Positions 6,096 to 32,077 of a stretch of 40,116 bases of DNA are shown in pieces (positions within the stretch are counted from its first letter, which is position 1; the number at the start of each line of letters is the position of its first letter). Origin of the DNA: a phage; NCBI GenBank assembly GCA_011944185.1, contig GCA_011944185.1_3921.1. One strand, 5' to 3'. The notes under the pieces were generated by a model, which made no database searches, was not told where the DNA came from, and saw only the letters and a program-made list of their open reading frames with translations. The position numbers and the translations under genes were made by a program.

Positions 6096-6116
6096 TTCTA
6101 TTTGCGGAGGTGCTTA

Positions 6117-7718
6117 ATGGACTTAAATGCTGTTAAGCAGAAGCGAGTGGAAGATGTTAGGAAAGTCCTAGCTGGAGAGTTGGGGCTTTCTGATGAAGTA
6201 AAAGAAATTATTAAATCATTCGGTAAAGACCCCTCTAAATTCCTTCCAACTCAAATTCTGACTTTATTAAGATACACACCAGACCAAGTTCGCCTTATCT
6301 TTAAATTGATGACTGATAAGAATTATGTAGCCCCTCAGCCGGGTTCTCAAGAGGTCTTTTTAAATACTAATGCTGACTTGGTTCTCTATGGTGGTGCTGC
6401 GGGTGCTGGTAAGACTGCTGCATTGTTAATGGACTCTTTAAGGTTTATTGATGACCCTAATTATAATGCTGTATATTTCCGTCGAAATACAACACAGCTA
6501 CAAGGTGGTTTGTGGCCTGCTGCAAAGAAACTATTTGGTAAGTTTGGTGGGGTTCCTCACGAGCAGAAGATGACTATCACATTCCCTTCTGGGGCAACTA
6601 TCAAGTTTACCTATCTAGAGCTTGAAAAGCACGCTGAAGGTCATCAGGGTATTGAGTATTCAGCTATTTACTTTGACGAAGGTACTCACTTCTCTGCTTC
6701 ACAGATTTCATACCTACAGACTCGTCTACGTTCTGGGGCTGAAGGTGATTCATACATGAAGATTTCTATGAACCCAGACAGAGACCACTTTATTTACGAT
6801 TGGGTAGAACCATTCTTAGATGAAGAAGGTTACCCAGACCCTGAAAAGTGTGGTCGTATTCGTTGGTATGTAATGAATGATGGTGTTATGGTTTCTGATT
6901 GGGAGAGAGACAAGATTCTTGAAATGTTTCCTCTTGAGATTCCTCAAACATATACATTCATCTCTGGTACGATTGATGATAACCCAATTCTTGACTTCTT
7001 AGAACCTAAATATCGTGGTAAGTTGGAAAACAACACCCCTGTAAACGTTGCAAGACTTCGTTTCGGTAACTGGAAGGCTCGTGCAGAAGGTTCAAACTAT
7101 TGGCAAAGACAATGGTGTGAAATTGTTGATTCACTCCCAGAAGATGTATTCGATGTCAGAGCATGGGACTTAGCAGCAACTTTACCATCTGAGATTAACC
7201 CTAACCCAGACTGGACAGCAGGTGTTAAGATGGGTAAATCTAAAAAAGACGGTTGCTATTATATCATTGATGTAGTAAGATTTAGAGATAGACCCTCTGG
7301 AGTCGAAACACAAATTAATTTGACTGCTGAAAGTGACGGTAAGCGAACTGGTATTTTTATCCCTCAAGACCCAGGCGCTGCTGGTAAATCCTACGCAACA
7401 TCCCTCATCAGGAAACTTGCCGAGAAAGGTTATCGAGCAAGAGCTAAACCAACAAATAAAGACAAAGTTACCCGATTTGCGGGGTTTTCTGCTGCTTCTG
7501 AAGCTGGACTTGTAAAAGTCTTGAGAGGTAGTTGGAACGAAGCTTACTTTCAAGAACTTGAAGGTTTTTGTGGTGATGGTAAAACTAAAGATGACCAAGT
7601 GGATGCTACCAGTGATGCTTTCAACAGTCTTAACGAAGTTAAATTATTCAAGCCACCATCAATGGGTGCTCACACAGACTTAGTGAGAGGAAACCCATAT
7701 GAGGGGCTTAGACGTTGA
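6117..7718 (+). CDS. terminase large subunit
   Basis: Walker A P-loop LYGGAAGAGKT, DEGTH Walker B-like; ATG at 6117 with GGAGG 6 nt upstream (the track starts at an in-frame TTG at 6102); followed by portal. Confidence 0.88.
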   Translation: MDLNAVKQKRVEDVRKVLAGELGLSDEVKEIIKSFGKDPSKFLPTQILTLLRYTPDQVRLIFKLMTDKNYVAPQPGSQEVFLNTNADLVLYGGAAGAGKTAALLMDSLRFIDDPNYNAVYFRRNTTQLQGGLWPAAKKLFGKFGGVPHEQKMTITFPSGATIKFTYLELEKHAEGHQGIEYSAIYFDEGTHFSASQISYLQTRLRSGAEGDSYMKISMNPDRDHFIYDWVEPFLDEEGYPDPEKCGRIRWYVMNDGVMVSDWERDKILEMFPLEIPQTYTFISGTIDDNPILDFLEPKYRGKLENNTPVNVARLRFGNWKARAEGSNYWQRQWCEIVDSLPEDVFDVRAWDLAATLPSEINPNPDWTAGVKMGKSKKDGCYYIIDVVRFRDRPSGVETQINLTAESDGKRTGIFIPQDPGAAGKSYATSLIRKLAEKGYRARAKPTNKDKVTRFAGFSAASEAGLVKVLRGSWNEAYFQELEGFCGDGKTKDDQVDATSDAFNSLNEVKLFKPPSMGAHTDLVRGNPYEGLRR

Positions 7719-7734
7719 TAGCTAGGTGAGAAGA

Positions 7735-9201
7735 ATGGCAGATATTACAGAAACACAAGAAAGCTTACCACCATTTAGAATGGGTGAAGTAGGTTCTTTG
7801 GGTCTGAAGGTTAAGAATGGAAGAATCTATGAAGAACCTCGTCAGGCACTAAGGTTCCCTGAAAGTATTAAAACTTTCCAATTAATGATGCGTGACCCTG
7901 CTGTAGCAGCATCTGTAAATATTATTAAGATGTTTGTCAGAAAAGTCAACTGGAGATTCGTACCTCCAAAGGGAAAAGAGCAAGACCCTAAAATGCTTGA
8001 AAGAGCAGACTTCTTTAATTCTTTAATGGATGACATGGAGCATGATTGGGCAGATTTTATTAATTCTGTAATGTCATTCTGCACTTATGGGTTCTGTGTT
8101 AACGAGAAAGTTTATAAGAAGCGTCAGGGTAAAAAAGGAAAGTACCAGTCTAAATTTGATGATGGTCTAATTGGATGGGCTAAATTACCAATCAGAAACC
8201 AATCAACACTTGATAAGTGGTATTTTGACGAAGACTTTAGAAAAGTTACAGGTGTTAGGCAGAATCTGAGAAATGTTTCACATATTGCTGGAGCAATTAA
8301 TCTCGGAGAAAGACCACTAACAAGAAAACTTCCACGAGCTAAATTCATGCTGTTCAAGTATGACGATGAATATGGAAATCCAGAAGGTCGTTCACCATTA
8401 CTTAATGCTTATGTACCGTGGAAGTATAAAGTACAGATTGAAGAGTATGAAGCTGTTGGTGTTTCAAGAGACTTGGTAGGTATGCCAAAGATTGGTTTAC
8501 CACCAGATTATCTGGATGAAAATGCAGAACCTGAAAAGAAAGCTTTCGTACAATACTGCAAAACTGTTGTCAACGATATGATTGCTAATGACAGAGCAGG
8601 TTTAATCTGGCCTAGATATATCGACCCAGATACTAAAGAGGATATTTTCGAGTTCTCATTAGTTTCTAGACAGGGTGCTAAAGCATACGATACAGGTTCT
8701 ATTATTGACAGATACTCCAAGCAGATTATGATGGCATTTATGTCAGATGTTCTTGCTATGGGTCAGTCAAAATACGGTTCATTCTCTCTTGCAGATTCTA
8801 AGACAAGCTTATTAGCGATGTCAGTAGATATTCTGCTGAAGCAAATTAAGAACGTAATTAACCGTGACTTAGTTGCACAGACTTATGCTCTTAATATGTG
8901 GGATGATGAAGAACATGTACAAATCACATATGATGATATCGAAACTCCAGACCTTGAAGCAATTGGTTCTTATATTCAGAAGACTGTTGCAGTAGGTGCT
9001 TTGGAAGTTGACAAAGAACTATCTAACAAGCTTAGAGAGCATATTGGTCTTCCTCCTGCTGATGAGTCTCAGCCAGTATCTGAAAAGCTTTCTCCAAATA
9101 GCCAAAGCCGTTCAGGAGATGGTTATAAGACCGCTGGAGAAGGTACTGCAAAGACACCTTCAGCGAAAGACCCAAGCACAGCAAATAAGGCAAATAAATA
9201 A
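7735..9201 (+). CDS. portal protein (by position and size)
   Basis: about 489-aa ORF directly after the terminase; ATG at 7735 with GGTGAG upstream (the track starts at GTG 7726). Confidence 0.7.
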   Translation: MADITETQESLPPFRMGEVGSLGLKVKNGRIYEEPRQALRFPESIKTFQLMMRDPAVAASVNIIKMFVRKVNWRFVPPKGKEQDPKMLERADFFNSLMDDMEHDWADFINSVMSFCTYGFCVNEKVYKKRQGKKGKYQSKFDDGLIGWAKLPIRNQSTLDKWYFDEDFRKVTGVRQNLRNVSHIAGAINLGERPLTRKLPRAKFMLFKYDDEYGNPEGRSPLLNAYVPWKYKVQIEEYEAVGVSRDLVGMPKIGLPPDYLDENAEPEKKAFVQYCKTVVNDMIANDRAGLIWPRYIDPDTKEDIFEFSLVSRQGAKAYDTGSIIDRYSKQIMMAFMSDVLAMGQSKYGSFSLADSKTSLLAMSVDILLKQIKNVINRDLVAQTYALNMWDDEEHVQITYDDIETPDLEAIGSYIQKTVAVGALEVDKELSNKLREHIGLPPADESQPVSEKLSPNSQSRSGDGYKTAGEGTAKTPSAKDPSTANKANK

Positions 9202-9701
9202 TGGCTGAAGTTATCTCTATTTCAAATGCTACACGAGTGCATTCGTATAGAGGTGTTCTTATTATCACTGACAAATTATCTGTAGAGGTTGGCTCAAGGG
9301 TCAGCCTTTCAGGTTATGTAAGTGATGGTGAAACCTCTGACGTTTTCACTATTTGCAGGTTACTTGATGCTCCAATGAGTGGGAAACCGTTTATTTCAGG
9401 AAATTGTAGTGAAATTGTTAAAATTCCATTTGACAGTTCATGCCTTTTGGGTGTAAAGTTATATAACTGCGAGAATAAACGTATCAATGTTAATAGCATT
9501 GAAGCCGCTTTCATTACCCTCGACACTGCATTTCAATCTCCAATGACAGTTAATAAAGAAACAAACAGACTTGAATACATTTTTTCACAAAATGATTACA
9601 AAGTACTTGTCAAAGGTAAAGTATATGATATGATTGTAAATGTGGTAGATGAATCTGGTAACCATTCAACAGTCCTTAAACAAAAAGTAAGGTTTAATTA
9701 A
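9201..9701 (+). CDS. hypothetical protein (166 aa)
   Basis: ORF coupled to the portal stop. Confidence 0.45.
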   Translation: MAEVISISNATRVHSYRGVLIITDKLSVEVGSRVSLSGYVSDGETSDVFTICRLLDAPMSGKPFISGNCSEIVKIPFDSSCLLGVKLYNCENKRINVNSIEAAFITLDTAFQSPMTVNKETNRLEYIFSQNDYKVLVKGKVYDMIVNVVDESGNHSTVLKQKVRFN

Positions 9702-10033
9702 TGGGAACATTAACTATTGATGGTAAGAATAAAATCCTCGCCACGCTAACCCCAACGACTATTATTTTACACAATGTAGACCCAACGGCAGACCCTACAG
9801 CAAATAAGGTTACTCAGCCAGTGGCTATTTATTTTTCTGAACCGGATAACGGCTTAATTGCCTCAGAAGACACAGTTAATATTACTGTTCCAGCTTCTGC
9901 AACGGTCTCACACTATAGCTTGTGGGATGCTAACGATAAATGCGTGGCAACTGGTGCTCTTAGCAAACCTCAATTCTTTGCTGAAGAAGGTATTTATGTT
10001 ATCTCTTCAGTCTCTGTAGATTTAAACAAATAG
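9701..10033 (+). CDS. hypothetical protein (110 aa)
   Basis: ORF coupled to the upstream stop. Confidence 0.45.
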   Translation: MGTLTIDGKNKILATLTPTTIILHNVDPTADPTANKVTQPVAIYFSEPDNGLIASEDTVNITVPASATVSHYSLWDANDKCVATGALSKPQFFAEEGIYVISSVSVDLNK

Positions 10034-10044
10034 GGTGAGTAAAA

Positions 10045-11391
10045 ATGAGTTCGAATATCTTCAGACTTGCTGATAGATTATTCAACCAACCTTTACTAGC
10101 CACTGAATCATTAGCTCACTCAGCAGCAACTTATGTGAATAACAGATTGCTGGGTGATGTCCAAGCAGCAGTAAACTTTGATAAACCCAAAGGTGACGCA
10201 AGAAGTCTTTTAAAAGTAAAAGATGACATTGCTATTATCCCTATTATGGGTGGTTTAACTCATCGTATGACGTTCATTGATGCAATGTGTACAGGTGGAT
10301 TAAGCTCTTATGAGGGTTTACGTAGAGGCTTTGACGAAGCTTTAGCAGATGAGTCAATCAAGACTATTGTTCTGCATATTGATTCTGGTGGTGGTGAAGC
10401 TTCAGGTTGCTTTGAATTAGCACGTCACATCATGGCTTCAAGAGGCCAAAAGAAAATTATTGCTTATGTAGATGAGTTCGCTTGTTCCGCTGCATATGCT
10501 CTTGCATCTTCTGCTGAAGAAATTATTGCATCACCAGATGCAGATGTTGGTTCTATTGGTGTAATCATGGTTCATCAGGAATTAACTAAGGCATTTGAAA
10601 AGAATGGCGTAACAATTAACGTCATCAAAGCTGGTGAGTTTAAAGGTATGGGTTCACCATTCCAAGCACTTTCAGAAGAAAGCAAAGAAAGACTTCAAAA
10701 GAGAATTAATGATACCTACGCAACCTTTACAGGTTTTGTAGCTGAAGCTCGTAATATCTCTGAAGAAGCTGTAAAGAATACTGAGGCGAATGTTTATTCT
10801 GCTCAGGAAGCTCTTGAACTTGGTTTAATTAACTCAATCATGTCTCAAGATGATTTCTTAAATTACTTACAAGGTTCTGAAGAGGCTCCTGTAAGTTTAA
10901 ACGTTAACAATTCAGGTGAAGAAATGACTGAACAAGAAAAGCAAGAACTAGAAGCTTTGCGTCTTCAGGTTGCTCAAATGAAAGCTAAAGAACAGGAAGC
11001 TGCTTTGTCAGATTTGACTAATAAGATTTCTGCTTCTGCTGAAGCTTTTGGATTTGATGCAAAAGAAGCTGCAACGACTATTTTAGGTGCTGGTCTTGAT
11101 AACCCTCTGAGTGTTCTGTTTATGAATGCTATGGAAGGTGCTAACCAGAAACTTAATGAAACTATCGCGTCCCATGCTTCTGCAATGGAAGAAAAAGAAT
11201 CAGAAATTACCAAGCTGAAAGAAACTGCTGGTGCTGTTCTTGAACATTCCAACGCTATGGAAGAAGTGGGTAATGACGGCGAAGCTGATTTAGTTGAAGA
11301 AGAAAAAGAACCAGCTAAGAATGCTTCCGAAGACACCGCTGAACAACGCAAACTGGCTCTCCAGAATGCTCTAAAATCTCTTATCAAATAA
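10045..11391 (+). CDS. prohead protease, S49/ClpP-like, with C-terminal scaffold-like coiled-coil region
   Basis: S49/SppA-like core (IDSGGGEASG ... FACSAAYALAS ... IGVIMVHQE); acidic, Ala/Glu-rich coiled-coil C-terminus; placed between portal and capsid genes like lambda gpC/Nu3. Confidence 0.78.
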   Translation: MSSNIFRLADRLFNQPLLATESLAHSAATYVNNRLLGDVQAAVNFDKPKGDARSLLKVKDDIAIIPIMGGLTHRMTFIDAMCTGGLSSYEGLRRGFDEALADESIKTIVLHIDSGGGEASGCFELARHIMASRGQKKIIAYVDEFACSAAYALASSAEEIIASPDADVGSIGVIMVHQELTKAFEKNGVTINVIKAGEFKGMGSPFQALSEESKERLQKRINDTYATFTGFVAEARNISEEAVKNTEANVYSAQEALELGLINSIMSQDDFLNYLQGSEEAPVSLNVNNSGEEMTEQEKQELEALRLQVAQMKAKEQEAALSDLTNKISASAEAFGFDAKEAATTILGAGLDNPLSVLFMNAMEGANQKLNETIASHASAMEEKESEITKLKETAGAVLEHSNAMEEVGNDGEADLVEEEKEPAKNASEDTAEQRKLALQNALKSLIK

Positions 11392-11402
11392 GGAACACAA
11401 TA

Positions 11403-11780
11403 ATGGCATATCAAGGTTTTACTAAGTTAGGTAAAAGAGAACCTCTGAATGATATCATTCTTTGGGAACAGGTTACCCCAACAGGCCACTCTCGTAAAGA
11501 GTACACCCCACAGGCATCTACAGAATATCGTGTAGGTGAAGTTCTGAAAGCAGATGGTACTAAAGTTGCAGCAGGGGAAGAAGCTCAGGCTGATTCTGTA
11601 TGTATCGTTAACTTTTATGCAGACCTGCAACTGTCTTACCACGGTCAGTTGAAAGTTGTTGGTATTTACCGTGACGCAGAACTGAAAGACATGCTGACTC
11701 TTGAGTCTGGTGTTAATGCCGAGAGCGTCAAGACAGCTCTGGCTGCTAAAGGTATTGATTTCGTACCAACTGGCCTGTAA
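11403..11780 (+). CDS. head decoration protein (gpD-like, by position and size)
   Basis: 125-aa ORF between protease and major capsid gene; codon usage matches the capsid gene. Confidence 0.5.
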   Translation: MAYQGFTKLGKREPLNDIILWEQVTPTGHSRKEYTPQASTEYRVGEVLKADGTKVAAGEEAQADSVCIVNFYADLQLSYHGQLKVVGIYRDAELKDMLTLESGVNAESVKTALAAKGIDFVPTGL

Positions 11781-11813
11781 TAACAATAATAAGACATTCT
11801 GGAGAATTTTACA

Positions 11814-12920
11814 ATGTTGACTAATTCTGAAAAAAGCAGATTTTTCCTTGCTGACCTGACTGGTGAAGTCCAGTCTATCCCAAATACTTATGGGTATATT
11901 TCCAACTTAGGTCTGTTCCGTTCAGCACCAATCACCCAAACTACTTTCCTTATGGACTTGACTGATTGGGATGTTAGCTTGCTTGATGCGGTAGACCGTG
12001 ATAGCCGTAAAGCAGAGACTAGCGCACCTGAGCGTGTTCGTCAAATCAGCTTCCCAATGATGTACTTCAAAGAAGTTGAAAGCATTACTCCTGATGAAAT
12101 TCAGGGTGTACGTCAGCCAGGCACTGCAAACGAACTGACTACTGAAGCTGTAGTACGTGCTAAGAAGCTGATGAAGATTCGTACCAAGTTCGATATTACT
12201 CGTGAGTTCCTGTTTATGCAAGCTCTGAAGGGTAAAGTTGTTGATGCTCGTGGTACTCTGTATGCTGACCTGTACAAGCAGTTCGACGTTGAGAAGAAGA
12301 CTGTTTACTTCGACCTTGACAACCCTAATGCTGACATCGACGCTTCTATTGAAGAACTGCGTATGCACATGGAAGACGAAGCTAAGACTGGCACTGTAAT
12401 CAACGGTGAAGAAATTCACGTAGTTGTTGACCGTGTATTCTTCAGCAAGCTGACTAAACACCCTAAGATTCGTGATGCCTATCTTGCACAGCAGACCCCA
12501 CTGGCTTGGCAACAGATTACTGGTTCTCTGAGAACTGGTGGTACTGACGGCGTTCAGGCTCACATGAACACTTTCTACTACGGTGGTGTTAAGTTTGTCC
12601 AGTACAACGGTAAGTTCAAAGACAAGCGTGGTAAGGTTCATACTCTGGTGAGCATTGATGGTGCTGGTGCAGAGGTTGGTGTAGGACACGCTTTCCCTAA
12701 CGTTTCTATGCTGGGTGAAGCAAACAACATCTTCGAAGTGGCTTATGGCCCATGCCCTAAGATGGGTTACGCAAATACACTTGGTCAGGAACTGTATGTA
12801 TTCGAATACGAAAAAGACCGTGATGAAGGTATTGACTTCGAAGCTCACTCTTACATGCTGCCATACTGTACTCGTCCTCAGTTGCTGGTAGACGTTCGTT
12901 CTGACGCTAAAGACGAATAA
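11814..12920 (+). CDS. major capsid protein (lambda gpE-like)
   Basis: 368-aa ORF in the canonical position; strongly biased codon usage (CTG, CGT, GAC) typical of a highly expressed virion gene. Confidence 0.8.
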   Translation: MLTNSEKSRFFLADLTGEVQSIPNTYGYISNLGLFRSAPITQTTFLMDLTDWDVSLLDAVDRDSRKAETSAPERVRQISFPMMYFKEVESITPDEIQGVRQPGTANELTTEAVVRAKKLMKIRTKFDITREFLFMQALKGKVVDARGTLYADLYKQFDVEKKTVYFDLDNPNADIDASIEELRMHMEDEAKTGTVINGEEIHVVVDRVFFSKLTKHPKIRDAYLAQQTPLAWQQITGSLRTGGTDGVQAHMNTFYYGGVKFVQYNGKFKDKRGKVHTLVSIDGAGAEVGVGHAFPNVSMLGEANNIFEVAYGPCPKMGYANTLGQELYVFEYEKDRDEGIDFEAHSYMLPYCTRPQLLVDVRSDAKDE

Positions 12921-12941
12921 TATTCTTAAGGAGGGTTATGA

Positions 12942-13391
12942 ATGTGTTATACAGGCGACCCAGCCAATAACCCTCTTGATAGAGTAAGAATCCTCTGCAC
13001 AGACACCAATAATGATGAAATTCTTATTGAACAGTCTGTGCTAGAGTGGTTCTATCTAGAATCTGGAAAGGATGAAAAGAAAGCAGCCATCAAAGCTCTT
13101 AAATATTTACTCTTTCAAGTAGCCAAGATGGGAGATGAGAAGGTTGGTGGTGTTTATTTACGTAACTCTTCCAGATTCAAATCTCTGAAAGCTGTTTATG
13201 ATGACCTTGTTAAAAGCTCTGTTTCAGGACTACCCTATGCAGGTGGTATTAACCAGTGCGATATTGATATGCGTCGTCAGAATCCTTGCTCTGTCAAGAA
13301 ATACACAGAATATGGTGATGCTGCCAGATACGAAGGCAGAGATTACTGCAACCGTGTTAATGGCGTATTTATTATCGAGCGAGATGAATAA
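12942..13391 (+). CDS. hypothetical head-tail joining protein
   Basis: ORF with AAGGAGGG RBS; position between capsid and tail genes. Confidence 0.45.
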   Translation: MCYTGDPANNPLDRVRILCTDTNNDEILIEQSVLEWFYLESGKDEKKAAIKALKYLLFQVAKMGDEKVGGVYLRNSSRFKSLKAVYDDLVKSSVSGLPYAGGINQCDIDMRRQNPCSVKKYTEYGDAARYEGRDYCNRVNGVFIIERDE

Positions 13392-13873
13392 TGGTTAAAA
13401 GGGTTATTCACCCCGCTAGAGCAAAATTAGTCGGGGCTATGAAGAACTTGCAAACGGCTAATGCTCAAGTTGGGTATTTTCAAGAACAAGGTCAACATAG
13501 CTCTGGTTTTTCTTATCCTGCTTTAATGTATTTGCAAGAAGTTATTGGGGTTCCCTCAGTTTCTGGTAAAGTATATCGTAGGTTGTTTGAAATCACTATG
13601 ATGCTAAACAGACAGACCTTGTTAGAGCAGACTAAGAAGAATCTATATAAGCAACTTAGCAGTCTCAACACAGACCCTTCAAATACCCTAGAAGCATTTG
13701 CAAAGAATGCTCAAAAGGCAATTAAAAGAGGTTTTGGTAATTCTGCTATCCTCCCTCCTAACGCACCTTCCACAGTCAAGAAAAAAGGCTTTAATGCACC
13801 TCTTGTTGAGACAGGTGACTTAAGGGATAACCTTGCTTATAAAATTTCTACTAAGAAGGGTATTAAGAAATGA
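13391..13873 (+). CDS. hypothetical head-tail joining protein
   Basis: translationally coupled ORF (160 aa). Confidence 0.45.
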   Translation: MVKRVIHPARAKLVGAMKNLQTANAQVGYFQEQGQHSSGFSYPALMYLQEVIGVPSVSGKVYRRLFEITMMLNRQTLLEQTKKNLYKQLSSLNTDPSNTLEAFAKNAQKAIKRGFGNSAILPPNAPSTVKKKGFNAPLVETGDLRDNLAYKISTKKGIKK

Positions 13874-14271
13874 GACTCTTAAACAGACACAGCTTTGTAG
13901 TAAAGCGTAAAGTCTCTGAAGACGGTTATTACAATGATGATGGTGATTGGGTAGCTTCACAAGATATTGTAGAGGTTAACTGCAAAGGTAATATCCAGCC
14001 ATATATCAAAGGTTCTGTAAAGAACGGTACACAGATTGCTTTACCGGAAGGTATCAGGCTTACCGATACAAGAATCCTGTATACTACATATAAACTTAGA
14101 ACTTCAGATGATGTAGAGTGGAATGAGTCTGATATTGTTATGATTGATGGTCATGAGTATGAAGTATTTATGACTATGGATTGGTCACAGCAATTAGCCC
14201 ATACGTCCCATTATGAATATATCATTATTAGAAGGGATAAAATGAATGCAGTTAGAAACAGCAGAACTTGA
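13870..14271 (+). CDS. hypothetical neck/tail completion protein
   Basis: overlapping start/stop coupling (133 aa). Confidence 0.45.
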   Translation: MRLLNRHSFVVKRKVSEDGYYNDDGDWVASQDIVEVNCKGNIQPYIKGSVKNGTQIALPEGIRLTDTRILYTTYKLRTSDDVEWNESDIVMIDGHEYEVFMTMDWSQQLAHTSHYEYIIIRRDKMNAVRNSRT

Positions 14272-14845
14272 AAAAGGTCTAGTTAGAACCTTAGTGGATG
14301 TTATTGGTCACAGACTAGCTCGTGATAAAAATAATAGACCAAACGTAATTAGAGCTTACCCTTCTGATAACTCAAATGACAAAGGTTTAAAACCTGACCA
14401 GCCATTTATTACCGTATATTGTCAAGATGCTGCAACACCTTATGGTTGGGTTCTTGATAAGTTTGTTGAGGATGATGTAGTTTGCTACAGAATTGCTTTT
14501 CAGATTCCAGTATTAATTACGGTAAATGGTAAAGGTGCTCACAGTATTATGCTTGAGCTTAAACAACGATTAGAGATGAGTTCAGTCAGAGATTTAATTC
14601 TTGAAGAGACAGGAGCTACAGTTTTAGACACTGGAGCTATCCCGAATGACTATACCTATCTCAATACAGATTTCGAAAATTCTGCGCCTCTTGTTGTAAC
14701 TCTTGTAAAAAATTCAGTCCTGAAAGATGAACGTGGGGGAATTATTGAACGTGTCATTGTTGATGGTGAATTAGTTTACGAAGAAGGACAAGAGCCACCA
14801 GAATATACTATCCATCTAGATGTAGACTCCAAAGGGGTAAAATAA
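14246..14845 (+). CDS. hypothetical tail completion protein
   Basis: 199-aa ORF overlapping the upstream gene by 26 nt. Confidence 0.45.
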   Translation: MQLETAELEKGLVRTLVDVIGHRLARDKNNRPNVIRAYPSDNSNDKGLKPDQPFITVYCQDAATPYGWVLDKFVEDDVVCYRIAFQIPVLITVNGKGAHSIMLELKQRLEMSSVRDLILEETGATVLDTGAIPNDYTYLNTDFENSAPLVVTLVKNSVLKDERGGIIERVIVDGELVYEEGQEPPEYTIHLDVDSKGVK

Positions 14846-16198
14846 ATGTGGAATCCAATTGTTAATGTAGATATTACATTGAACACCGCAGGAACTACAA
14901 GAGAAGGTTTTGGGCTACCACTATTTTTAGCTTCAACAGATAACTTTGAAGAAAGAGTCCGTGGTTACACTTCCTTAACTGAAGTTGCTGAAGATTTCGA
15001 TGAAAACTCTGCTGCATATAAGGCTGCTAAACAACTTTGGAGTCAGACTCCTAAAGTAACTCAGCTTTATATTGGTAGACGTGCTATGCAGTACACTGTA
15101 TCAATTCCTGATGAGGTTACTGAGAGCACCGACTATTCTTTAACTGTAGCTGTGAGCGGTGGAGTTTCTCAGCCATTCCAGTACACTTCACAGTCAGAAG
15201 ATACTGCTGAGAAGGTGCTACAGCAGCTTAAAACTCAGATTGAAGCAGAGCCTTCTGTAAAAGACCTTGTTACCGTCAATGTAACTGGTGCTGGTGGTTC
15301 AGCAACAATGGTAATCACCAAAGCGGGTGACAATGACTTCGTGAAGGTTACCACTACAGCACAAACAGTGTCAATTGCAAGTACAACTGCTGACACAGCA
15401 TCGACTGCTCTGGCAGCTATTGAGGCTTATTCAACTGACTGGTATTTCATTGCAGCAGAAGATAGAACTCAACAGTTTGTCTTAGCAATGGCTTCTGAGA
15501 TTCAAGCTCGTAAGAAGATTTTCTTTACAGCTAACTCTGATGTAACAGCCCTACAAGGCACAGAATTAGCCAGTGCAAATGATGTTCCAGCACAGCTTGT
15601 TAAGAGTCAGTACACTCGTACCGTTTGCTTGTGGCATCACACAGCAGCAGAAGACTATCCAGAAATGGCATACATTGCTTATGGCGCTCCGTATGATGCA
15701 GGTTCAATTGCTTGGGGTAACGCACAGTTAACTGGCGTAGCTGCTTCTCTACAGCCATCTAATCAGAGACCTCTGACAAGTATTCAGAAGTCAGCTTTAG
15801 ATGCACGTCACTGTAACTTTATTGACCTTGATGGTGGTGTTCCAGTGGTTCGTAGAGGGATTACTTCTGGTGGGGAATGGATTGATATCATCCGTGGTGT
15901 TGACTGGTTAGAATCAGACCTGAAAACTTCTCTGAGAGACTTGCTAATTAACCAGAAGGGTGGTAAGATTACTTATGATGATACTGGTATTACCCGTATT
16001 CGTCAAGTCATTGAAACCTCTCTGCAAAGAGCAGTCAACAGAAACTTCCTGTCATCTTACACAGTTAATGTTCCTAAAGCCTCTCAAGTTGCTTTGGCAG
16101 ACAAGAAAGCTCGTATCCTGAAAGACGTTACCTTCGCAGGTATCTTAGCAGGGGCTATCTTGGATGTTGACTTGAAAGGTACAGTGGCTTACGAATAA
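14846..16198 (+). CDS. tail sheath protein (contractile tail)
   Basis: 450 aa; sheath-like N-terminus (GFGLPLFLASTDNFEE); followed by a small tube-sized ORF, chaperones and tape measure in P2/Mu order. Confidence 0.6.
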   Translation: MWNPIVNVDITLNTAGTTREGFGLPLFLASTDNFEERVRGYTSLTEVAEDFDENSAAYKAAKQLWSQTPKVTQLYIGRRAMQYTVSIPDEVTESTDYSLTVAVSGGVSQPFQYTSQSEDTAEKVLQQLKTQIEAEPSVKDLVTVNVTGAGGSATMVITKAGDNDFVKVTTTAQTVSIASTTADTASTALAAIEAYSTDWYFIAAEDRTQQFVLAMASEIQARKKIFFTANSDVTALQGTELASANDVPAQLVKSQYTRTVCLWHHTAAEDYPEMAYIAYGAPYDAGSIAWGNAQLTGVAASLQPSNQRPLTSIQKSALDARHCNFIDLDGGVPVVRRGITSGGEWIDIIRGVDWLESDLKTSLRDLLINQKGGKITYDDTGITRIRQVIETSLQRAVNRNFLSSYTVNVPKASQVALADKKARILKDVTFAGILAGAILDVDLKGTVAYE

Positions 16199-16213: not shown

Positions 16214-16660
16214 ATGGCTATGTATCAGCAATATTCCCCTAAAGACGTTGTGTGTAGCTGGAATGGTATTGCTATTGAAGGCTTTGCCCCAGACTCATTC
16301 TTACGTCTACAGAGAACATCACCACTTGTGACACCAGTTGTAGGTGCAGGTGGTCAAGTTGCTCTGACAAGAAATGCAGACAAGACAGGTACTATTGAGA
16401 TTGAGCTAATGCAGACTTCTCTCTCTAACCAGATGCTTTCTGCAATTCAAGCTAAACAAGACAATATGGAACTTGAAGAAGATATCTCTTCTAACTTCGT
16501 AATCTACGACCCATCAGGCTCTGTTCTGGCAACTGGTATTAATGCTTGGTTGCAGGAATTACCACAGATTGAACTTGGTCGTGACCAGAACTCTAAGACT
16601 TGGATTTTTGGTTGTGAGAAGCTAGACTACACTTCTACAATTCCAGCGTCAAGTGTTTAA
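16214..16660 (+). CDS. tail tube protein
   Basis: 148 aa; position after the sheath gene; followed by a terminator. Confidence 0.55.
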   Translation: MAMYQQYSPKDVVCSWNGIAIEGFAPDSFLRLQRTSPLVTPVVGAGGQVALTRNADKTGTIEIELMQTSLSNQMLSAIQAKQDNMELEEDISSNFVIYDPSGSVLATGINAWLQELPQIELGRDQNSKTWIFGCEKLDYTSTIPASSV

Positions 16661-16672
16661 TAAATCCTATAA

Positions 16673-16706
16673 GGGGGAGACTTTAAAAGGTCTTCCCCTT
16701 TTTTGT
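16673..16706 (+). terminator. rho-independent terminator (probable attenuator after sheath/tube)
   Basis: 9-bp stem 16673-16681/16690-16698 with an 8-nt loop, then TTTTTTGT. Confidence 0.55.
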
Positions 16707-16733: not shown

Positions 16734-17132
16734 ATGAAAACAGAATCTAGAGTAATTAATGGTAAGAAAGTAAATATCGTTCTGCTTGGGGCAAGAGATG
16801 GTATTAAGATGTCTATGAAGTTGGGTAAAATTGTTGTTCCAACCTTTGCACAGATGCTGTCAAGTCTGACTGATAAAGACAAGAAAGAAGCTCCAATGGT
16901 TCCATTTAAAGAACTTGTTGAAGCTTGTTTTGACAGAATTGAAGAAATTAACCTTGAAGAAATGGCTACCTTACTATTTCAAGGGGCGACTGTTGATGAC
17001 TTCCCACTAAATATTGATACCTACTTCCAAGCAAACTACGGTGAATTTATTGATTACTTAGCATTTGCGCTGGAGGCAAACTTCGGAAGTTTTTTCGAAG
17101 CAAGCATTTTCAAAAGCCTAACTTCTCAGTAA
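16734..17132 (+). CDS. tail assembly chaperone (gpG/gpE-like)
   Basis: 132-aa ORF immediately upstream of the tape measure gene; contains slippery heptamer T_TTT_TTC at 17090-17096. Confidence 0.6.
   Translation: MKTESRVINGKKVNIVLLGARDGIKMSMKLGKIVVPTFAQMLSSLTDKDKKEAPMVPFKELVEACFDRIEEINLEEMATLLFQGATVDDFPLNIDTYFQANYGEFIDYLAFALEANFGSFFEASIFKSLTSQ
17090..17096 (+). promoter_or_regulatory. programmed -1 ribosomal frameshift slippery site (TTTTTTC)
   Basis: X_XXY_YYZ heptamer in the 0 frame of the chaperone gene, about 35 nt before its stop. Confidence 0.5.
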
Positions 17133-17134
17133 AC

Positions 17135-17373
17135 ATGGGTAACACTCTACAGACACCACTGACTGATGCTGCTGTAGAGGCAACCTATGAAGAAGCAGAC
17201 GAGATGAAATTTGTGCTTGCTATTTATGGTATGGAAGGGTGTAAAGAAACACTTGACCAACTCTTTGCTATGACATTCTCTGATTTATTATCATTGAGAC
17301 AATTTCTTGAGATTCAGAGGTCGTATAAAGAGGAAATTGCTTACAACGAACTTAGAAGAGCAGGAAAAATGTA

Positions 17374-17374
<1 letters not shown>
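17135..17374 (+). CDS. tail assembly chaperone frameshift extension (gpGT/gpE+E'-like), reached by -1 frameshift from 16734
   Basis: ORF is in the -1 frame relative to 16734..17132; the -1 frame is open from the slippery site at 17090 through 17374. Confidence 0.55.
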
Positions 17375-22758
<5,384 letters not shown>

Positions 22759-22759
<1 letters not shown>

Positions 22760-24228
22760 TGGCAGGACTAACTACAACAGGATTACAAACTCTAAGATAT
22801 CAGGAGATTTTTGATAATATCAAATCAAGACTTCTTAGAGATATTTCACCAAACCTTGACGTCTCTGAAGACAGTCAATTAGGTCTCTTCCTAGCTTCAA
22901 TTGCAAGGTCTTTAGCAGATACTCATGAGATTCTATCAGAAATCTACGATGGGGGTACAATTGATAAGGCTGAAGGCTTTAACCTTGATGATATTACAGC
23001 TTTAAATGCGGTATACAGATACGTTGCTCAGGCAACAAGAGGTCAAGTTGAGTTTACTGGAACTACTGGTGCTACCATTCCTTCAACAACAAGATTAAGA
23101 AGTACTGCCGGAAACATCTTTTATCCAGTTAATAACATTACTCTTACTCCATCATATTGTGTTGAAGCTACCCTTGAAGTTAACTCTTTACGAACTGATG
23201 CAGATTATGTTATTATTATTGATAACGTCATTTTCTCATATAAACCAACCTCATTAGATACAATCACCACGCTGCTAACAAAATTAGCAGAAGCTATTAA
23301 TGGTGGTATTGTAGCAAAAGCAGAAGTCATTAATGATGGAGCCGCATTAAGAGTCTATAAAGATGAAGGTGATATCATTGCAAGAACAAACCCTATGGTT
23401 GTCACTGCAACAACGTTTCTGACCTTTACAAAGATTACAACTATCTCAGATGTAGTAGCTGAAGAGGTTGGTGCTATTCCTGCTTTAGCTGGAACTCTTA
23501 TTGAGATTGAGACAACTGTTGATGGTCTTGACAGCATCTATAACAGGTATGACTTAACGACTGGTAGAAACGAAGAAACTGACACAGAACTTAGACAGAG
23601 ATATTTAGAATCCTTAGCAGTTACTGGTGTAGGGACTTTGGATGCAATTGTAGCTGCTGTTAAAAGAGTTCAAGGTGTCTCAGATGCTTCAGGTGTTGAG
23701 AATGATACTGAAGAGACAAACTCAGAAGGTCTTCCACCAAAATCTTTTAAGATTGTTGTAGTTGGTGGTCAAAATGATAATGTTGCTCAAGCAATCTGGG
23801 ATACAAAACCTGCTGGTATCAGGGCTTATGGCTCAATTTTTGGTACAGCCTATGATTTAGGTGGTCTGGCACATAATATCTATTTTAGCAGACCAACACC
23901 AAAATACGCATTTGTTAAGGTGTCTTACTCATTATATGACGAAGAAAGTTTGACAATCCCTGAAGAAGATATCAGAGATAGTATTGTGCAAGGTATTAAC
24001 GCCTACGGAAGAACTCTTAAGGTTGGTAATGATGTTATCCCTAACAGAATTTATGGGTACATCTATGACGTAATCAAAGGTATTGAGATTAATGAGGTGA
24101 AAGTAGCATTATCAAACAGCCAATCAGTTCCACCTAGTGACGGACAATATACTACAGCAAGAATTACTGTTGACGGTGACCAATATACTGTTTGGGAAAG
24201 TAGCCAGTATACCATCACTAAGGAGTAA
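22759..24228 (+). CDS. baseplate J-like protein
   Basis: 489 aa; position and size in a Mu/P2-like baseplate order. Confidence 0.5.
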
Positions 24229-24230: not shown

Positions 24231-25085
24231 ATGTTTGAAAAGATTGATAGTGTTTATTATAAAACACTTGATGAAAGGACTGTAACACAGTTTAAAGATA
24301 AATTTATCTATACAAGTATCTTGAAAGCAATCACTGATGAGCTACAAACACTAGAGGATGTTTGCTGGCAGATGCACACAGAGAGAAATATCAGGACGTC
24401 AGTAGGTCAACAACTTGATAATATTGGCTCACTGATTAAAGTTCCTAGACCTTTAGGTGCTGATGATGAAACATACAGAGCTATGCTTTATATCCAAATC
24501 TTCCTAAGACGTTCTGATACTACTCCAACATTCTTGCAAAAAGCAATTATGACATTGTATGGTGCAACTTTCTCTCAGATTTTTGAGCATATTACTCCTA
24601 AGACTGGTGGTATCGTTATCCGTATTAATACTAGAAAAAGCGTTCTTGATGCTGCATATACACTGTCAAAGATTTCTGCAACAACCACTGGTTCCGCTGT
24701 TATCTTAAGAGATGTTACTTTAAATGGGACTGCTTGGACACCTGTAGAGGTTGCTGATTCATCACTTGCTATTGTTGATGATAAAGAGAACTGGTTTGTA
24801 ACTGATGCTAACAGAGGTCTGGTCACAAATAACACTGGTGGCTCTCTGGAGTCCAACCTAGTAGGGAGTCTTACAGATGCTGGTGTTATTGATGGTTACT
24901 TTAAGGTTGACAGAACAGCAAACTCACAGAGCGATGATTATATGACTGTAGATAGGTCTAATAAGAGTGGTTATTTCATCGTTGGTAAAGAAGCTATTGC
25001 AGGTGGTGCATACGGAATCATGGCTGAGGTTGCACAAATTGTCAAAGGCAGAAAAGATAAATCACAACAAGAAGGAAATTCTTAA
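24231..25085 (+). CDS. baseplate/tail-fibre attachment protein (gpI-like, tentative)
   Basis: 284-aa ORF between the J-like gene and the fibre genes. Confidence 0.4.
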
Positions 25086-25387
25086 TGGCAGTTCTAAATT
25101 GGTCTACAAACGAAGTAGATACTGATGGTAATCAGTTAAAAGTTTTACCACCACCGGAAGTTCAAGAGACAGGTCTTTTAAAGGGTGAGCCTATGGGTAG
25201 GCAGTGGTTCAACTATATTATCAACTACCTGCTGAATAAAGTAAATGGCACTGTTGGTGAAGTTCGTTCATATGCAACTGAGCAACCAGATTTAGTGGCT
25301 AATGGCTGGAACCTCATTAAGTCTGAGACAGGGACTGCATCAACAAGTACAAGAAACCTTTACACATATGAATATGTAGGAGCTTAA
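25085..25387 (+). CDS. hypothetical tail protein (100 aa)
   Basis: coupled ORF upstream of the tail fibre gene. Confidence 0.4.
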
Positions 25388-25389
25388 TA

Positions 25390-26565
25390 ATGGCAGTAGG
25401 TGAAATTCAAATTAGTGCCTTGCCACAAGCGGCCTTACCAATTGATTTGAGTGATATCTTCCACCTTAAGCAAGGTGTTGAGGATAAAAGATGTACGCTT
25501 GAGCAGTTGTTAGCACCTCACGCATCTCTGAGGAATAATCCTCATGGTGTAACTAAATCACAAGTGGGTCTTGATAATGTTATTAACTCTCTTCAATTAG
25601 TTGCAGCTAATAACTTGTCAGACATTGTGAATGTTGCTGAGGCAAGAGCAAATCTACAAATTATGTCGTCAGAGGAAGTGAATAACTTAATTCAGCAACA
25701 TATTGACGACAAAAGTAACCCACACAATACAACGAAAGCACAGGTTGGTTTAAGTAATGTTCAGAACTGGACAACATCTAATCTGTACAATGAAGATGCT
25801 GATAAGTATGCTACAGCGAGAGCAGTGAATAACTTATACAAAGCTATCCAAGCATCATATCCAGTGGGGACTATTCATCTGTCTGTTAACTCTGCTAACC
25901 CATCCACTTACTTGCTTTGTGGTGGCACTTGGGAGTTAGTTTCTAAAGGTAGGGCACTAGTTGGTTATGATACAGATTCTAGACCTGTTGGTTCAATGTT
26001 TGGTTCTCAGACTGTAGCATTAACAAATAATAATTTACCAGCACATACTCACTCTATCTACCTAACAGGTGGTGGTCATACACACTCTGCAAGTGTATCT
26101 ATCTCTAGTTTTGATTATGGTTCAAAAAGCACATCAACTTTTGATTACGGTACAAAAACGACTAATAGTGCTGGTGCTCACACTCACACGTTTAGTGGCA
26201 CAACAAGTAATGCTGGTAACCACAACCATAGAGTTCCTATGAGGGGTAATGATAGGGGTGGCACAAATGCTATTACTGCATCTGCTGATGCTGGTGTTGG
26301 TAATGCTATGTATACTGATTTAGCTGGTGCTCACACCCATAGCTTCTCAGGTACAACTGCATCATCTGGTGCTCATAGTCATACTGTCGCAATTGGTGCT
26401 CACAGCCACACTGTTAATATTGGTTCGCACAGTCATACAGGCACTGTTACTGTTTCTAGCTCTGAGCATACACACTCAGGGACAACTGGTTCTGTTGGTG
26501 GTGGTCAAGCATTCAGTGTTGAGCAGCCATCTTTTGTAGTGTATGTGTGGCAGAGAACAGCTTAA
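25390..26565 (+). CDS. tail fibre protein with HxH repeats
   Basis: repeats NPHGVTKSQVGLDNV / NPHNTTKAQVGLSNV; C-terminal domain rich in HTHS, NHNH, AHSHTV, SHSHTG motifs; C-terminus ...VWQRTA. Confidence 0.8.
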   Translation: MAVGEIQISALPQAALPIDLSDIFHLKQGVEDKRCTLEQLLAPHASLRNNPHGVTKSQVGLDNVINSLQLVAANNLSDIVNVAEARANLQIMSSEEVNNLIQQHIDDKSNPHNTTKAQVGLSNVQNWTTSNLYNEDADKYATARAVNNLYKAIQASYPVGTIHLSVNSANPSTYLLCGGTWELVSKGRALVGYDTDSRPVGSMFGSQTVALTNNNLPAHTHSIYLTGGGHTHSASVSISSFDYGSKSTSTFDYGTKTTNSAGAHTHTFSGTTSNAGNHNHRVPMRGNDRGGTNAITASADAGVGNAMYTDLAGAHTHSFSGTTASSGAHSHTVAIGAHSHTVNIGSHSHTGTVTVSSSEHTHSGTTGSVGGGQAFSVEQPSFVVYVWQRTA

Positions 26566-26575
26566 TTTCTTTACA

Positions 26576-26595
26576 GGGGCTTTATAGCCCCTTTT
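26576..26595 (+). terminator. stem-loop after the first tail fibre gene (weak terminator)
   Basis: ggggct-ttat-agcccc followed by TTTT. Confidence 0.4.
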
Positions 26596-26611
26596 AAGAG
26601 GAAAACTTATA

Positions 26612-29161: not shown

Positions 29162-29240
29162 TCCCTTGTTGACTGATTGTTAAGATGGTGTTAATATTCT
29201 TTATAGGTATTCTCACCATCTTGGCTGATGAGGTGATTAA

Positions 29241-29438
29241 ATGCCTACAATCCTAGCAATTCTTCTAAAAAATCTAGGTAGCTTCTTCTGGAAACTCATT
29301 TTATCCCTTTTAAGTGAATACATGATTGAGAAAGTGTTCTTTAAGCTTGCAAGATACCTTGCGAGTAAAACAGACACACCTATTGATGATGAGTTCGTAG
29401 ATAACTTAGAAAAAGCTTTTAAGGGGGAGAACAAATGA
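29241..29438 (+). CDS. small hydrophobic protein (65 aa), possible holin-like membrane protein
   Basis: hydrophobic N-terminal half ILAILLKNLGSFFWKLILSLL; position after the tail fibre genes. Confidence 0.35.
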   Translation: MPTILAILLKNLGSFFWKLILSLLSEYMIEKVFFKLARYLASKTDTPIDDEFVDNLEKAFKGENK

Positions 29439-29806
29439 AGTGGCTAGAGGATGCTTTTAAAAACAATATTGGTGCAATTGTAGTTGGTATTTTTAGTGTT
29501 ATTGGAATGTATACCACTATGCAAGTTTCAAGTGGTAAGCAAGAAGTATCTGTCACAACAAAGTTACAGCAGCTAGATAATTATTCCAAAAGTAACTATT
29601 CAGCTATTCGTGATTTACAGTCTGACATGAGACTGATTCAGCTAGGGATGGAGAACCAGAAAGTCCAGTTAGAGAATGTTAAGGGTGAGAATGCGAAACT
29701 TACCAAAACTCTTGATAAATTCTCTGACAGTGTGAACAATCTGGCCCAATCAGTATCAGCCTTGCAAGCTATTACTGAAAAGAACACAAAGAATACTGAA
29801 AAATAA
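29435..29806 (+). CDS. membrane-anchored coiled-coil protein (123 aa), possible spanin-like or fibre-associated
   Basis: N-terminal TM segment IGAIVVGIFSVIGMY followed by a heptad-like coiled-coil region. Confidence 0.35.
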   Translation: MKWLEDAFKNNIGAIVVGIFSVIGMYTTMQVSSGKQEVSVTTKLQQLDNYSKSNYSAIRDLQSDMRLIQLGMENQKVQLENVKGENAKLTKTLDKFSDSVNNLAQSVSALQAITEKNTKNTEK

Positions 29807-29814
29807 AATTTTAA

Positions 29815-29840
29815 GGCTCCCGTAAAAAGGAGCCTTTTTT
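29815..29840. terminator. bidirectional stem-loop terminator between convergent modules
   Basis: ggctcc-cgtaaaaa-ggagcc followed by TTTTTT on + and preceded by an A/T-rich run; located between the + gene ending 29806 and the - gene ending 29845. Confidence 0.55.
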
Positions 29841-29844
29841 GTTT

Positions 29845-30744
29845 TTACTTACCTACTGACAGGGGCGCTTCAATCTTCCCTGCATGTTGGTAGTTGTAAA
29901 TACCACCAATAAAATCACTTGCAGTAAGATGCTTCAAGTCACTTAAAGTATTAAGTGGTATGCCAATCTCAAAAGTGGGTGCATGAAACTCTTCATTGTT
30001 CATAAGCTCATAAACCTGTTTCATATGGTTCTGATAAATCTGAGTATCTCCAAAGACACCTATCAAGTACCGTGGAGTGTATCCAGTCATCTTACAAAGA
30101 ACTTCTAAGATGAAACCATAAGACGCAATATTAAACGGAAGTCCTAAAAAGGTGTCTACTGAACGTTGATACCACTGTAAGTCAACTTCACCTTCGTTAG
30201 TGATATAAATCTGAAACAGAACATGACAAGGTGCTAAAGCCATTGAGTTTGCTGCGATATCTGCTGCATTCCAAGCATTAACAAGCATGTAGCGGTCTGT
30301 AATATCACCCTTCATCTTCGTTACTAAGGTCTCTAACTGGTCTACAACACAACCATTATGACCTTCAAAGTTTCTCCACTGAACCCCGTAGATTCTCCCA
30401 CCTGCGTCATCTAACCAGTCTTGTTCAGAAGAATAATTAGAGCTTAACCAGCGTTTAAAATCATCTGACCAGATAGTCCAGCGTTCTCCATCATTTTCAT
30501 CCCAAGTGCGGTAACGGAGTTCACCCAGTTTATTCTCACCATTCAGGAACCATAAAGCTTCCCCAATAACTTGCCGTGTAAACACCTGTTTAGATGTTAA
30601 GAGCGGGAAACCAGTTCGCATATCAAAACGAAACTGAGGTGGAGCAAAAGCAGAGATAACATCTCCAGTTCGTGTAGTACGTAGTTCACCAACGGATAAA
30701 ACATGATTCAGGATATTTTTGTAACTTGTATCTGCTTGTGACAT
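29845..30744 (-). CDS. thyA: thymidylate synthase (ThyA family)
   Basis: catalytic-Cys motif ALAPCHVLFQ and DTFLGLPFNIASYGF; adjacent to DHFR. Confidence 0.8.
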   Translation of the reverse strand: MSQADTSYKNILNHVLSVGELRTTRTGDVISAFAPPQFRFDMRTGFPLLTSKQVFTRQVIGEALWFLNGENKLGELRYRTWDENDGERWTIWSDDFKRWLSSNYSSEQDWLDDAGGRIYGVQWRNFEGHNGCVVDQLETLVTKMKGDITDRYMLVNAWNAADIAANSMALAPCHVLFQIYITNEGEVDLQWYQRSVDTFLGLPFNIASYGFILEVLCKMTGYTPRYLIGVFGDTQIYQNHMKQVYELMNNEEFHAPTFEIGIPLNTLSDLKHLTASDFIGGIYNYQHAGKIEAPLSVGK

Positions 30745-30745
30745 A

Positions 30746-32064: not shown

Positions 32065-32077
32065 AGTTAATCACCTA

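Follow-up and report, generated by a model that had tools for sequence, protein, structure and literature searches.

A Felixounavirus virion gene cluster with a lambda-ordered head trio and a Mu-like contractile tail core

Phages of the genus Felixounavirus are described in the literature as myoviruses, and the virion of one member, Escherichia coli phage Bas63, has been solved by cryo-electron microscopy (PDB entries 9ncf, 9mt4 and 9ndy; PMC12609058). Its capsid is a T=9 shell of an HK97-fold capsid protein that carries 540 β-tulip decoration subunits, and the gene of a further decoration protein, which is Hoc-like, lies more than 10 kb away; its compact baseplate comprises a tube initiator, a spacer, a hub, an HxH puncture apparatus, two wedges and a T4 gp9-like fibre platform, and the virion bears two fibres with T4 gp37-like tips (PMC12609058). 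Shigella phage Sf14, which belongs to the sister genus Mooglevirus within the same subfamily, Ounavirinae, has the same architecture built from close homologues (PDB entries 9c2d and 9c39; PMC11821841), and the wording "simple Mu-like baseplate" comes from its description (PMC11821841). The lambda-, Mu-, P2- and T4-like features of this virion type have already been commented on in both atlases. Here, we analysed a 40,116-nucleotide (nt) stretch of phage DNA (GenBank assembly GCA_011944185.1, contig GCA_011944185.1_3921.1; "the window" in the following), focusing on three head genes at positions 10045–12920 and on the tail genes downstream. A preliminary description had read these genes as a mosaic, in which a lambda-like head module is combined with a Mu/P2-like contractile tail module and joined to a tRNA array and a family A DNA polymerase.

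The sequence identifies the window as the late (virion) genes of a Felixounavirus, a virulent E. coli myovirus of the Felix O1/wV8 type. We consider it very probable that the locus as a whole is best explained as such a cluster, with head and tail genes that have long been inherited together, a scaffold function residing in the protease gene and tail assembly chaperones made by frameshifting. The head-and-tail gene cluster noted in the preliminary description is confirmed, while the module origin and the mosaicism attached to it were overstated, and the virion system with its lambda/Mu-like resemblance is already known. The discovery value of the locus is accordingly small: the genus is well known and the Bas63 and Sf14 atlases assign nearly every protein. 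Its value lies rather in several practical points, set out below.

Assignment to the genus follows from high nucleotide identity to its members and collinearity with the wV8 RefSeq record (40 kb of the ~88-kb genome compared); the genus criterion of the International Committee on Taxonomy of Viruses is about 70% identity across the genome. In megablast searches, region 10045–16198 matched 297 phage records, with Escherichia phage KEP1 as the best (98.9% nucleotide identity) and wV8, EC6 and O157 typing phages at 97–98%. Positions 1–25000 are 96.6–98.1% identical to Felixounavirus members at 98–100% coverage; for positions 25001–40116, the fibre and early-gene part, these values fall to about 94–96% and 88–92%. 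The differences are of strain level only. Gene order, tRNAs and family A polymerase are shared with wV8 and Felix O1, and DNA identity to members of the genus is 96–99% over the structural module. Tightly packed plus-strand open reading frames (ORFs) form one block from 6102 to 29806, which is followed by a minus-strand block.

Head genes and contractile tail

Region 10045–12920 holds exactly three ORFs, all on the plus strand. Pfam searches and matches to PDB entry 9ncf bore out the proposal that they encode, in the lambda order, an S49 protease with a scaffold-like C-terminus, a decoration protein and a gpE-like capsid protein (Table 1). The protease ORF consists of an S49 part (amino acids [aa] 1–283) and an acidic, helix-prone C-terminal region (aa 284–448). 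Its product is 33% identical to lambda gpC over 254 residues (E = 1e-37); Ser148 and Lys200 are invariant, and Ser148 aligns with gpC Ser166, which we take to be the catalytic serine. The S49 domain itself is common to about 1000 phage records across all tail types.

The decoration protein returned no match in a Pfam search, and its best PHROG, 4146, is labelled "tail protease". The same label sits on the decoration gene in many GenBank and RefSeq records, and the Bas63 study has pointed out that it is a mis-annotation (PMC12609058); the full-length match to the Bas63 "Head stabilization/decoration protein" corrects it here. The gene is one intact ORF in the window, whereas the wV8 RefSeq record has two overlapping coding sequences (CDSs; gp063 and gp064) in its place. 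Such a split (locus L001, 18359–18735) may well stem from a frameshift error in that entry.

The structural proteins of the window match those of Bas63 over their full length, with E-values from 1e-74 to 0; such full-length matches to deposited chains cover the capsid, decoration, sheath, tube, collar, hub and sheath initiator proteins and both wedge proteins. Solved virions with near-identical proteins show that the capsid protein, of the gpE family and HK97 fold, builds the T=9 shell known for this capsid type (PMC12609058), and that the 125-aa protein cements it as β-tulip trimers at the three-fold and quasi-three-fold positions. The Mu-type portal bears the adaptor, the head completion protein and the tail terminator, together with a ring of collar and whisker proteins. 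Pfam assigned the whisker ORF to Gp80 below the cut-off (2e-4).

For the tail, matches to Pfam families, PHROGs and PDB chains support the gene order that had been proposed, namely sheath, tube, chaperones, tape measure, spike, gp25-like, J-like and I-like proteins and fibres. The product of ORF 14846–16198 is decisive for the tail type, since the preliminary description had named a siphovirus major tail protein as its alternative identity. Profile searches returned a tail sheath: PHROG 205 ("tail sheath") matched at 2e-125, and in the PDB a chain of the Bas63 tail, 9mt4_Q, covered the protein from end to end (E = 2.5e-281; its deposited name is "Structural protein"), with further matches to phi92 gp130 and to the tail sheaths of phiTE and Pam3. 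In addition, a separate tube gene (match to 9mt4_P) and a sheath initiator gene (match to 9ndy_C) are present, and the genus is described as myoviral. The probability that the phage has a non-contractile tail with this ORF as its major tail protein is, in our estimate, negligible; no observation spoke in favour of it.

Four baseplate genes came in addition to those on the earlier list, encoding the tube initiator, the spacer, the hub and the fibre platform. In the spike protein, an HTHH motif is aligned to KHIH of Mu gp45, albeit at a marginal E-value of 0.022. As the solved virions show, the products together form a tube-and-sheath helix on a compact baseplate made of the tube initiator, spacer, hub, HxH spike, sheath initiator, two wedges and fibre platform, and this baseplate bears one short and one long fibre whose tips resemble T4 gp37. 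Owing to the strong terminator behind the tube gene, the chaperone, tape measure and baseplate genes would be expressed at a lower level than sheath and tube.

Origin of the head-tail combination

We compared the virion proteins with those of lambda, Mu and P2 by pairwise BLASTP (for the tail, this series covered the sheath, hub, spike and the counterparts of gp46, gp47 and gp48 against Mu, and the sheath against P2). The decoration protein showed no pairwise similarity to lambda gpD (E = 0.09), nor did the capsid protein to lambda gpE (E = 0.4); the capsid protein is related to gpE at the level of the Pfam family, and the decoration protein to gpD at the level of the fold only. The sheath matched neither its Mu counterpart (E = 3.1) nor P2 FI (E = 0.17) significantly, and comparisons of baseplate proteins with Mu were likewise not significant (hub, 0.15; gp46, 6.8; gp47, 0.52; gp48, 16). 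The only Pfam matches of sheath and tube were to DUF3383 and KPP10_Orf10, respectively, and not to the P2 FI/FII or Mu L/M families.

A different set of relatives emerged from the PDB. Capsid, sheath, tube, sheath initiator and wedge proteins 1 and 2 all rank Bas63 first, then Sf14 (where deposited), then Pakpunavirus P7-1 (PDB entries beginning 9zd, and 9zbi), followed by phi92 and phiTE in varying order and then by Pam3; the hub is the exception, with phi92 placed above P7-1. P7-1, phi92 and phiTE, phages of the DUF3383-sheath lineage, are the nearest relatives outside the Ounavirinae for capsid and tail proteins alike, with amino-acid identities of about 30% to Pakpunavirus-type Pseudomonas phages and of 21–24% to phi92-like phages. 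Like the window, P7-1 encodes a cement trimer of the gpD-like kind; these phages differ in genome size and in their accessory genes. In tblastn searches, the capsid protein matched 1069 records and the sheath 1284. Among the matches listed, both proteins hit phages of the same groups (Escherichia, Pseudomonas, Rheinheimera, Salmonella, Vibrio, Erwinia, Acinetobacter, Shigella and Campylobacter), often in the same records and 2–3 kb apart, as in LN610583 and OZ035743.

Since the relatives of head and tail proteins rank alike, and both sets of proteins occur together in about 1000 genomes of myoviruses, these comparisons point to a head type and a tail type that have long been co-inherited, as one unit, in a large and old myovirus lineage with no recent junction between them. 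This argument is tempered by its basis, which is E-value ranks and taxon counts among the matches listed rather than phylogenies.

The competing account, a recent recombination that placed a lambdoid head module onto a Mu/P2-type contractile tail module, can draw on several of the same data: the C-D-E gene order is identical to that of lambda, the protease is 33% identical to gpC, the capsid protein belongs to Pfam Phage_cap_E, and the hub-spike-W-J-I-fibre core follows the order of Mu gp44–gp49 (P2 has V-W-J-I-H, with the hub gene D in a separate operon). Moreover, published papers have invoked "structural mosaicism" and horizontal transfer. However, the T4-type terminase and the Mu-type portal mean that the head module in its entirety cannot be called lambdoid, and even within the trio, the capsid and decoration proteins lack significant pairwise similarity to gpE and gpD. 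On the tail side, sheath, hub, W, J and I lack significant pairwise similarity to the Mu proteins, the sheath lacks it to P2 FI as well, and sheath and tube belong to Pfam families other than those of P2 and Mu. The shared ranked relatives and wide co-occurrence of head and tail also speak against a recent join, as does composition: G+C content is flat across the window (0.37–0.42), without a break at the head-tail boundary. We consider a recent mosaic highly improbable. What stands of the original proposal are the gene identities and the architectural likeness; an origin of the modules from lambdoid and Mu/P2 phages is disfavoured. Under long co-inheritance, the likeness to a lambda head and a Mu/P2 tail would reflect widely shared building-block families that have kept company in this lineage over a long time.

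Predicted chaperone frameshift and scaffold candidate

The preliminary description had also listed frameshifted chaperones, and the sequence upholds this. Between the tube and tape measure genes, a zero-frame ORF is overlapped by a −1 frame that is open from 17054 to 17374, and a T_TTT_TTC heptamer lies in the overlap, in the zero frame. Slippage by −1 on this heptamer would give rise to a G/GT-type chaperone pair, in which the predicted fusion protein has a computed length of 121 + 92 = 213 aa (16734–17096 joined to 17096–17374). We aligned six Ounavirinae sequences that represent Felixounavirus, Mooglevirus, Suspvirus, Kolesnikvirus and one unclassified Ounavirinae phage. In this alignment, a 37-nt block around the slip site, AAGTTTTTTCGA(A/G)GCAAGCATTTTCAAAA, varies at its single A/G position and is otherwise invariant, while its flanks diverge. 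Similarly, 41 nt with the heptamer inside (17079–17119) are the sole part of the chaperone region that matches Kolesnikvirus by blastn (92.7% identity), and DNA identity to Mooglevirus across the chaperone region amounts to about 80%. Citrobacter phage Mijalis has its chaperone annotated as a joined CDS. In the Sf14 protein table, gp42 is given as "Tail assembly chaperone?" and was detected by mass spectrometry, with the fusion not detailed (PMC11821841). The layout is that of lambda G/GT and P2 E/E+E', with the second ORF in the −1 frame and an X_XXY_YYZ heptamer in the overlap. We regard the frameshifted chaperones as well supported, the fusion protein being their predicted product, and the slip site is thereby pinned for a gene that appears as two separate genes in most records.

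The C-terminal region of the protease suggests where a missing function might reside. The Felix O1 genome paper reported, from proteomics, that the capsid protein is essentially uncleaved and proposed that the protease removes a scaffold; it identified no scaffold gene, and the later literature searched mentions none. Residues 284–448 of the protease carry a net charge of −17, consist to 60% of A, E, K, L, Q and M and to 2% of aromatic residues, and can be aligned only within the Ounavirinae. This acidic, presumably helical stretch would be what the procapsid assembles around. It could do so while still fused to the S49 protease domain, or as a Nu3-like protein whose translation begins independently at Met294; in both cases, the protease would then remove the scaffold part without trimming the capsid protein. 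The second possibility amounts to a nested scaffold gene of the type of lambda Nu3 or Mu Z, running from Met294 to the stop codon of the Ounavirinae S49 protease gene; we put it forward tentatively, at somewhat less than even chances. The candidate start lies at aa 294 of the protease, as compared with aa 239 of gpC for Nu3. If the proposal is true, this would be a Nu3/Z-type scaffold so far unnamed in the Felix O1-like phage literature searched; in any case, a location is proposed for the scaffold function.

These two proposals have to be set against their converse, according to which the chaperone ORFs are translated independently, without a programmed frameshift, and the protease tail is merely a fused domain that yields no Nu3-like product. 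Most Felixounavirus records indeed give the chaperone as two separate CDSs, and ORF 17135–17374 has an ATG of its own. Likewise telling against our proposals, a search 3' of the slip site turned up no RNA structure that could stimulate slippage (minimum free energy −8.2 kcal/mol, z = +0.78), and the 37-nt conservation could stem in part from coding in two frames rather than from a signal. As to the protease gene, further in-frame ATGs with motifs resembling a Shine-Dalgarno (SD) sequence occur at aa 175, 202 and 312, so that Met294 is not unique and several such motifs may be there by chance; a single-sequence AlphaFold2 model of the protease was unusable (pLDDT [predicted local distance difference test] 42, pTM [predicted template modelling score] 0.29), so that its all-helical C-terminus was not counted and the helical character of the tail rests on composition. 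On the other hand, no SD sequence precedes the ATG at 17135, a canonical heptamer sits in the correct frame in the overlap and stays invariant across genera while its flanks diverge, and Kolesnikvirus records leave the downstream −1 ORF unannotated or split it into small CDSs. Met294, too, is kept together with an SD-like motif in three lineages although the upstream residues differ, the motif being GAGGA in Erwinia phage MM7 and AGGTA in Pectobacterium phage Arno18. On balance, we find the converse unlikely, and favour programmed slippage together with a scaffold function in the protease tail.

Neighbouring genes and comparison with known systems

All features are collected in Table 1.

Table 1. 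Features of the window, with positions, strand and supporting evidence
Feature	Position	Strand	Evidence
25 tRNA genes with interspersed small ORFs	98–5672	+	ARAGORN; Pfam
Large terminase, T4-type (not lambda gpA-type)	6102–7718	+	Pfam Terminase_6N 5e-42, Terminase_6C 4e-33; PHROG 979
Portal, Mu gp29-type family	7726–9201	+	Pfam Portal_Mu 1.6e-26; BLASTP to Mu gp29, E 3e-4
Neck collar protein	9201–9701	+	PDB 9mt4_G "Collar protein", E 4e-104, full length
Neck whisker protein (podophage GP4 fibre-1-like)	9701–10033	+	Bas63 gp5 by gene order, length and Bas63 text
S49 prohead protease, 448 aa	10045–11391	+	Pfam Peptidase_S49 (PF01343), E 6.6e-39, aa 134–275
Candidate nested in-frame scaffold ORF, M294–K448, 155 aa	10924–11391	+	AGGTGA 4 nt upstream of ATG 10924; inferred
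Decoration (cement) protein, trimeric β-tulip, 125 aa	11403–11780	+	PDB 9ncf_J "Head stabilization/decoration protein", full length, E 3.4e-74
Major capsid protein, HK97 fold, gpE family, 368 aa	11814–12920	+	Pfam Phage_cap_E 3.4e-78; PDB 9ncf_A, E 1.2e-245
Head-tail adaptor (Bas63 gp9 by gene order)	12942–13391	+	PHROG 1732; Bas63 description
Conserved 160-aa neck-module ORF	13391–13873	+	PHROG 222 "tail completion or Neck1", 4.8e-40
Head completion protein (Bas63 gp11 by gene order)	13870–14271	+	PHROG 2874, 939; Bas63 description
Tail terminator	14246–14845	+	Pfam Phage_tail_terminator_9 5e-13
Contractile sheath (DUF3383 lineage)	14846–16198	+	Pfam DUF3383 8e-24; PHROG 205 "tail sheath" 2e-125
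Tail tube	16214–16660	+	PDB 9mt4_P "Tube protein" 2.9e-96; Pfam KPP10_Orf10
Strong intrinsic terminator between tube and chaperone genes	16671–16700	+	13-bp stem, then T run; annotated in wV8
Tail assembly chaperone, short (G-like) product, 132 aa	16734–17132	+	Pfam Phage_TAC_15 1.2e-19; ends TAA
−1 slippery heptamer T_TTT_TTC, zero frame, within overlap	17090–17096	+	Sequence
−1 frame extension (T-like part) of chaperone	17135–17374	+	PHROG 4963 "tail assembly chaperone"; sequence
Tape measure protein	17374–19602	+	Pfam TMP_3; PHROG 4036
Tube initiator (Bas63 gp18 by gene order)	19602–20399	+	Pfam Dit_like 3.9e-20; Bas63 text
Baseplate spacer (Bas63 gp19 by gene order)	20399–20740	+	Pfam Pam3_gp18 1.8e-17; Bas63 text
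Baseplate hub	20740–21717	+	PDB 9ndy_E "Hub protein (gp020)" 1.5e-218
Central spike (puncture apparatus), HxH motif	21717–22340	+	Pfam PF18352 N-terminal domain 6e-20; Bas63 text
Sheath initiator (gp25/W role)	22340–22759	+	PDB 9ndy_C "Sheath initiator (gp022)" 4e-89; Pam3 gp21 0.006
Wedge protein 2 (J-like)	22759–24228	+	Pfam Baseplate_J 4e-16; PDB 9ndy_H
Wedge protein 1 (I-like role)	24231–25085	+	PDB 9ndy_J 2.4e-157
Long-tail-fibre platform (T4 gp9-like, per Bas63 gp25)	25085–25387	+	PHROG 4141; Bas63 text
Short tail fibre (Bas63 gp26)	25390–26565	+	Pfam Gp10_C; PHROG 2097
Long tail fibre	26612–29161	+	Pfam gp37_trimer 2e-80; PHROG 4277
Bidirectional terminator at convergent end of late operon	29813–29836		Sequence scan; annotated in wV8
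Family A DNA polymerase	37206–39935	−	Pfam DNA_pol_A (PF00476) 1.8e-15

The product of the conserved 160-aa ORF in the neck module matched no chain of either solved Ounavirinae virion; the Bas63 text does not mention it, the Sf14 protein table has no entry for it, and it showed no similarity to the tail-completion proteins G of Mu and S of P2. It could be an assembly factor or account for helical density left unassigned at the spike tip, a weaker possibility than the nested scaffold.

Downstream of the long fibre gene lie a 65-aa ORF with a hydrophobic N-terminus (29241–29438, plus strand) and a 123-aa ORF with one N-terminal transmembrane helix, a coiled-coil-like region and a weak DivIC match (29435–29806, plus strand), both of which resemble lysis proteins of the holin or spanin type. 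By gene order, the second appears to equal Sf14 gp55, "Holin or lysozyme", which was found in virions by mass spectrometry.

Both elements to which the preliminary description had joined the virion genes, the tRNAs and the family A polymerase, are present. The virion cluster is flanked by the tRNA array, which is typical of the genus, and by nucleotide-metabolism and replication genes. The array comprises 25 tRNA genes, as compared with 23 reported for wV8. At 3263–3337 (plus strand), ARAGORN predicted a tRNA with anticodon TAT (Ile) where the collinear wV8 RefSeq gene is annotated as tRNA-Val, and the wV8 genes collinear with the Tyr and His tRNAs of the window are annotated as "tRNA-OTHER" pseudogenes. 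Two plus-strand ORFs of unassigned function lie inside the array, matching DUF7338 (3754–4311, E = 4e-61) and DUF7217 (4700–5497, E = 9e-88); the listed GTG start of the latter overlaps tRNA-Phe. Another ORF within the array (1785–2183, plus strand) gave a weak Pfam HNH match, and an HNH gene is annotated there in wV8. A gene for an HNH_3 and AP2 protein (36694–37209, minus strand) directly adjoins the polymerase gene, in the half of the window in which coverage against relatives falls to about 90%. Both HNH ORFs likely encode homing endonucleases. A promoter scan of the window returned 60 sites, no excess over shuffled sequence (50.7 ± 8).

Set beside lambda, the head genes show the same C/Nu3-D-E order, in which an S49 protease is followed by a trimeric β-tulip cement protein, a functional analogue of gpD encoded between the protease and capsid genes, and by a gpE-family capsid protein that, as in lambda, is not cleaved. 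The differences are equally clear: the shell is T=9 here and T=7 in lambda, a T4-type terminase and a Mu-type portal take the place of the Nu1/gpA terminase and the gpB portal, collar and whisker genes stand between portal and protease, and a second, Hoc-like decoration protein is encoded elsewhere in this virion type. The term "lambda-like" is thus to be applied to the protease-decoration-capsid trio alone, and denotes widespread families rather than a lambdoid origin.

The tail genes, in turn, follow the order of Mu gp39–gp49, i.e. sheath, tube, frameshifted chaperone, tape measure, hub, HxH spike, W, J, I and fibre, while P2 has the same genes (FI, FII, E/E+E', T, U, D, V, W, J, I and H) split over two operons. 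The compact, "simple" baseplate and its hub-spike-W/gp25-J-I core order are shared with both phages at the level of architecture only. Unlike Mu and P2, the present cluster additionally encodes a tube initiator that is extended at length beyond its C-terminus, a spacer, and a fibre platform resembling T4 gp9, and its fibres carry domains like those of T4 gp37, gp34 and gp10. The resemblance of the tail is that of a minimal contractile-tail core in general, and a "lambda-like head plus Mu-like tail" would be a trait of an old and extensive lineage of myoviruses, not a mosaic that arose locally.

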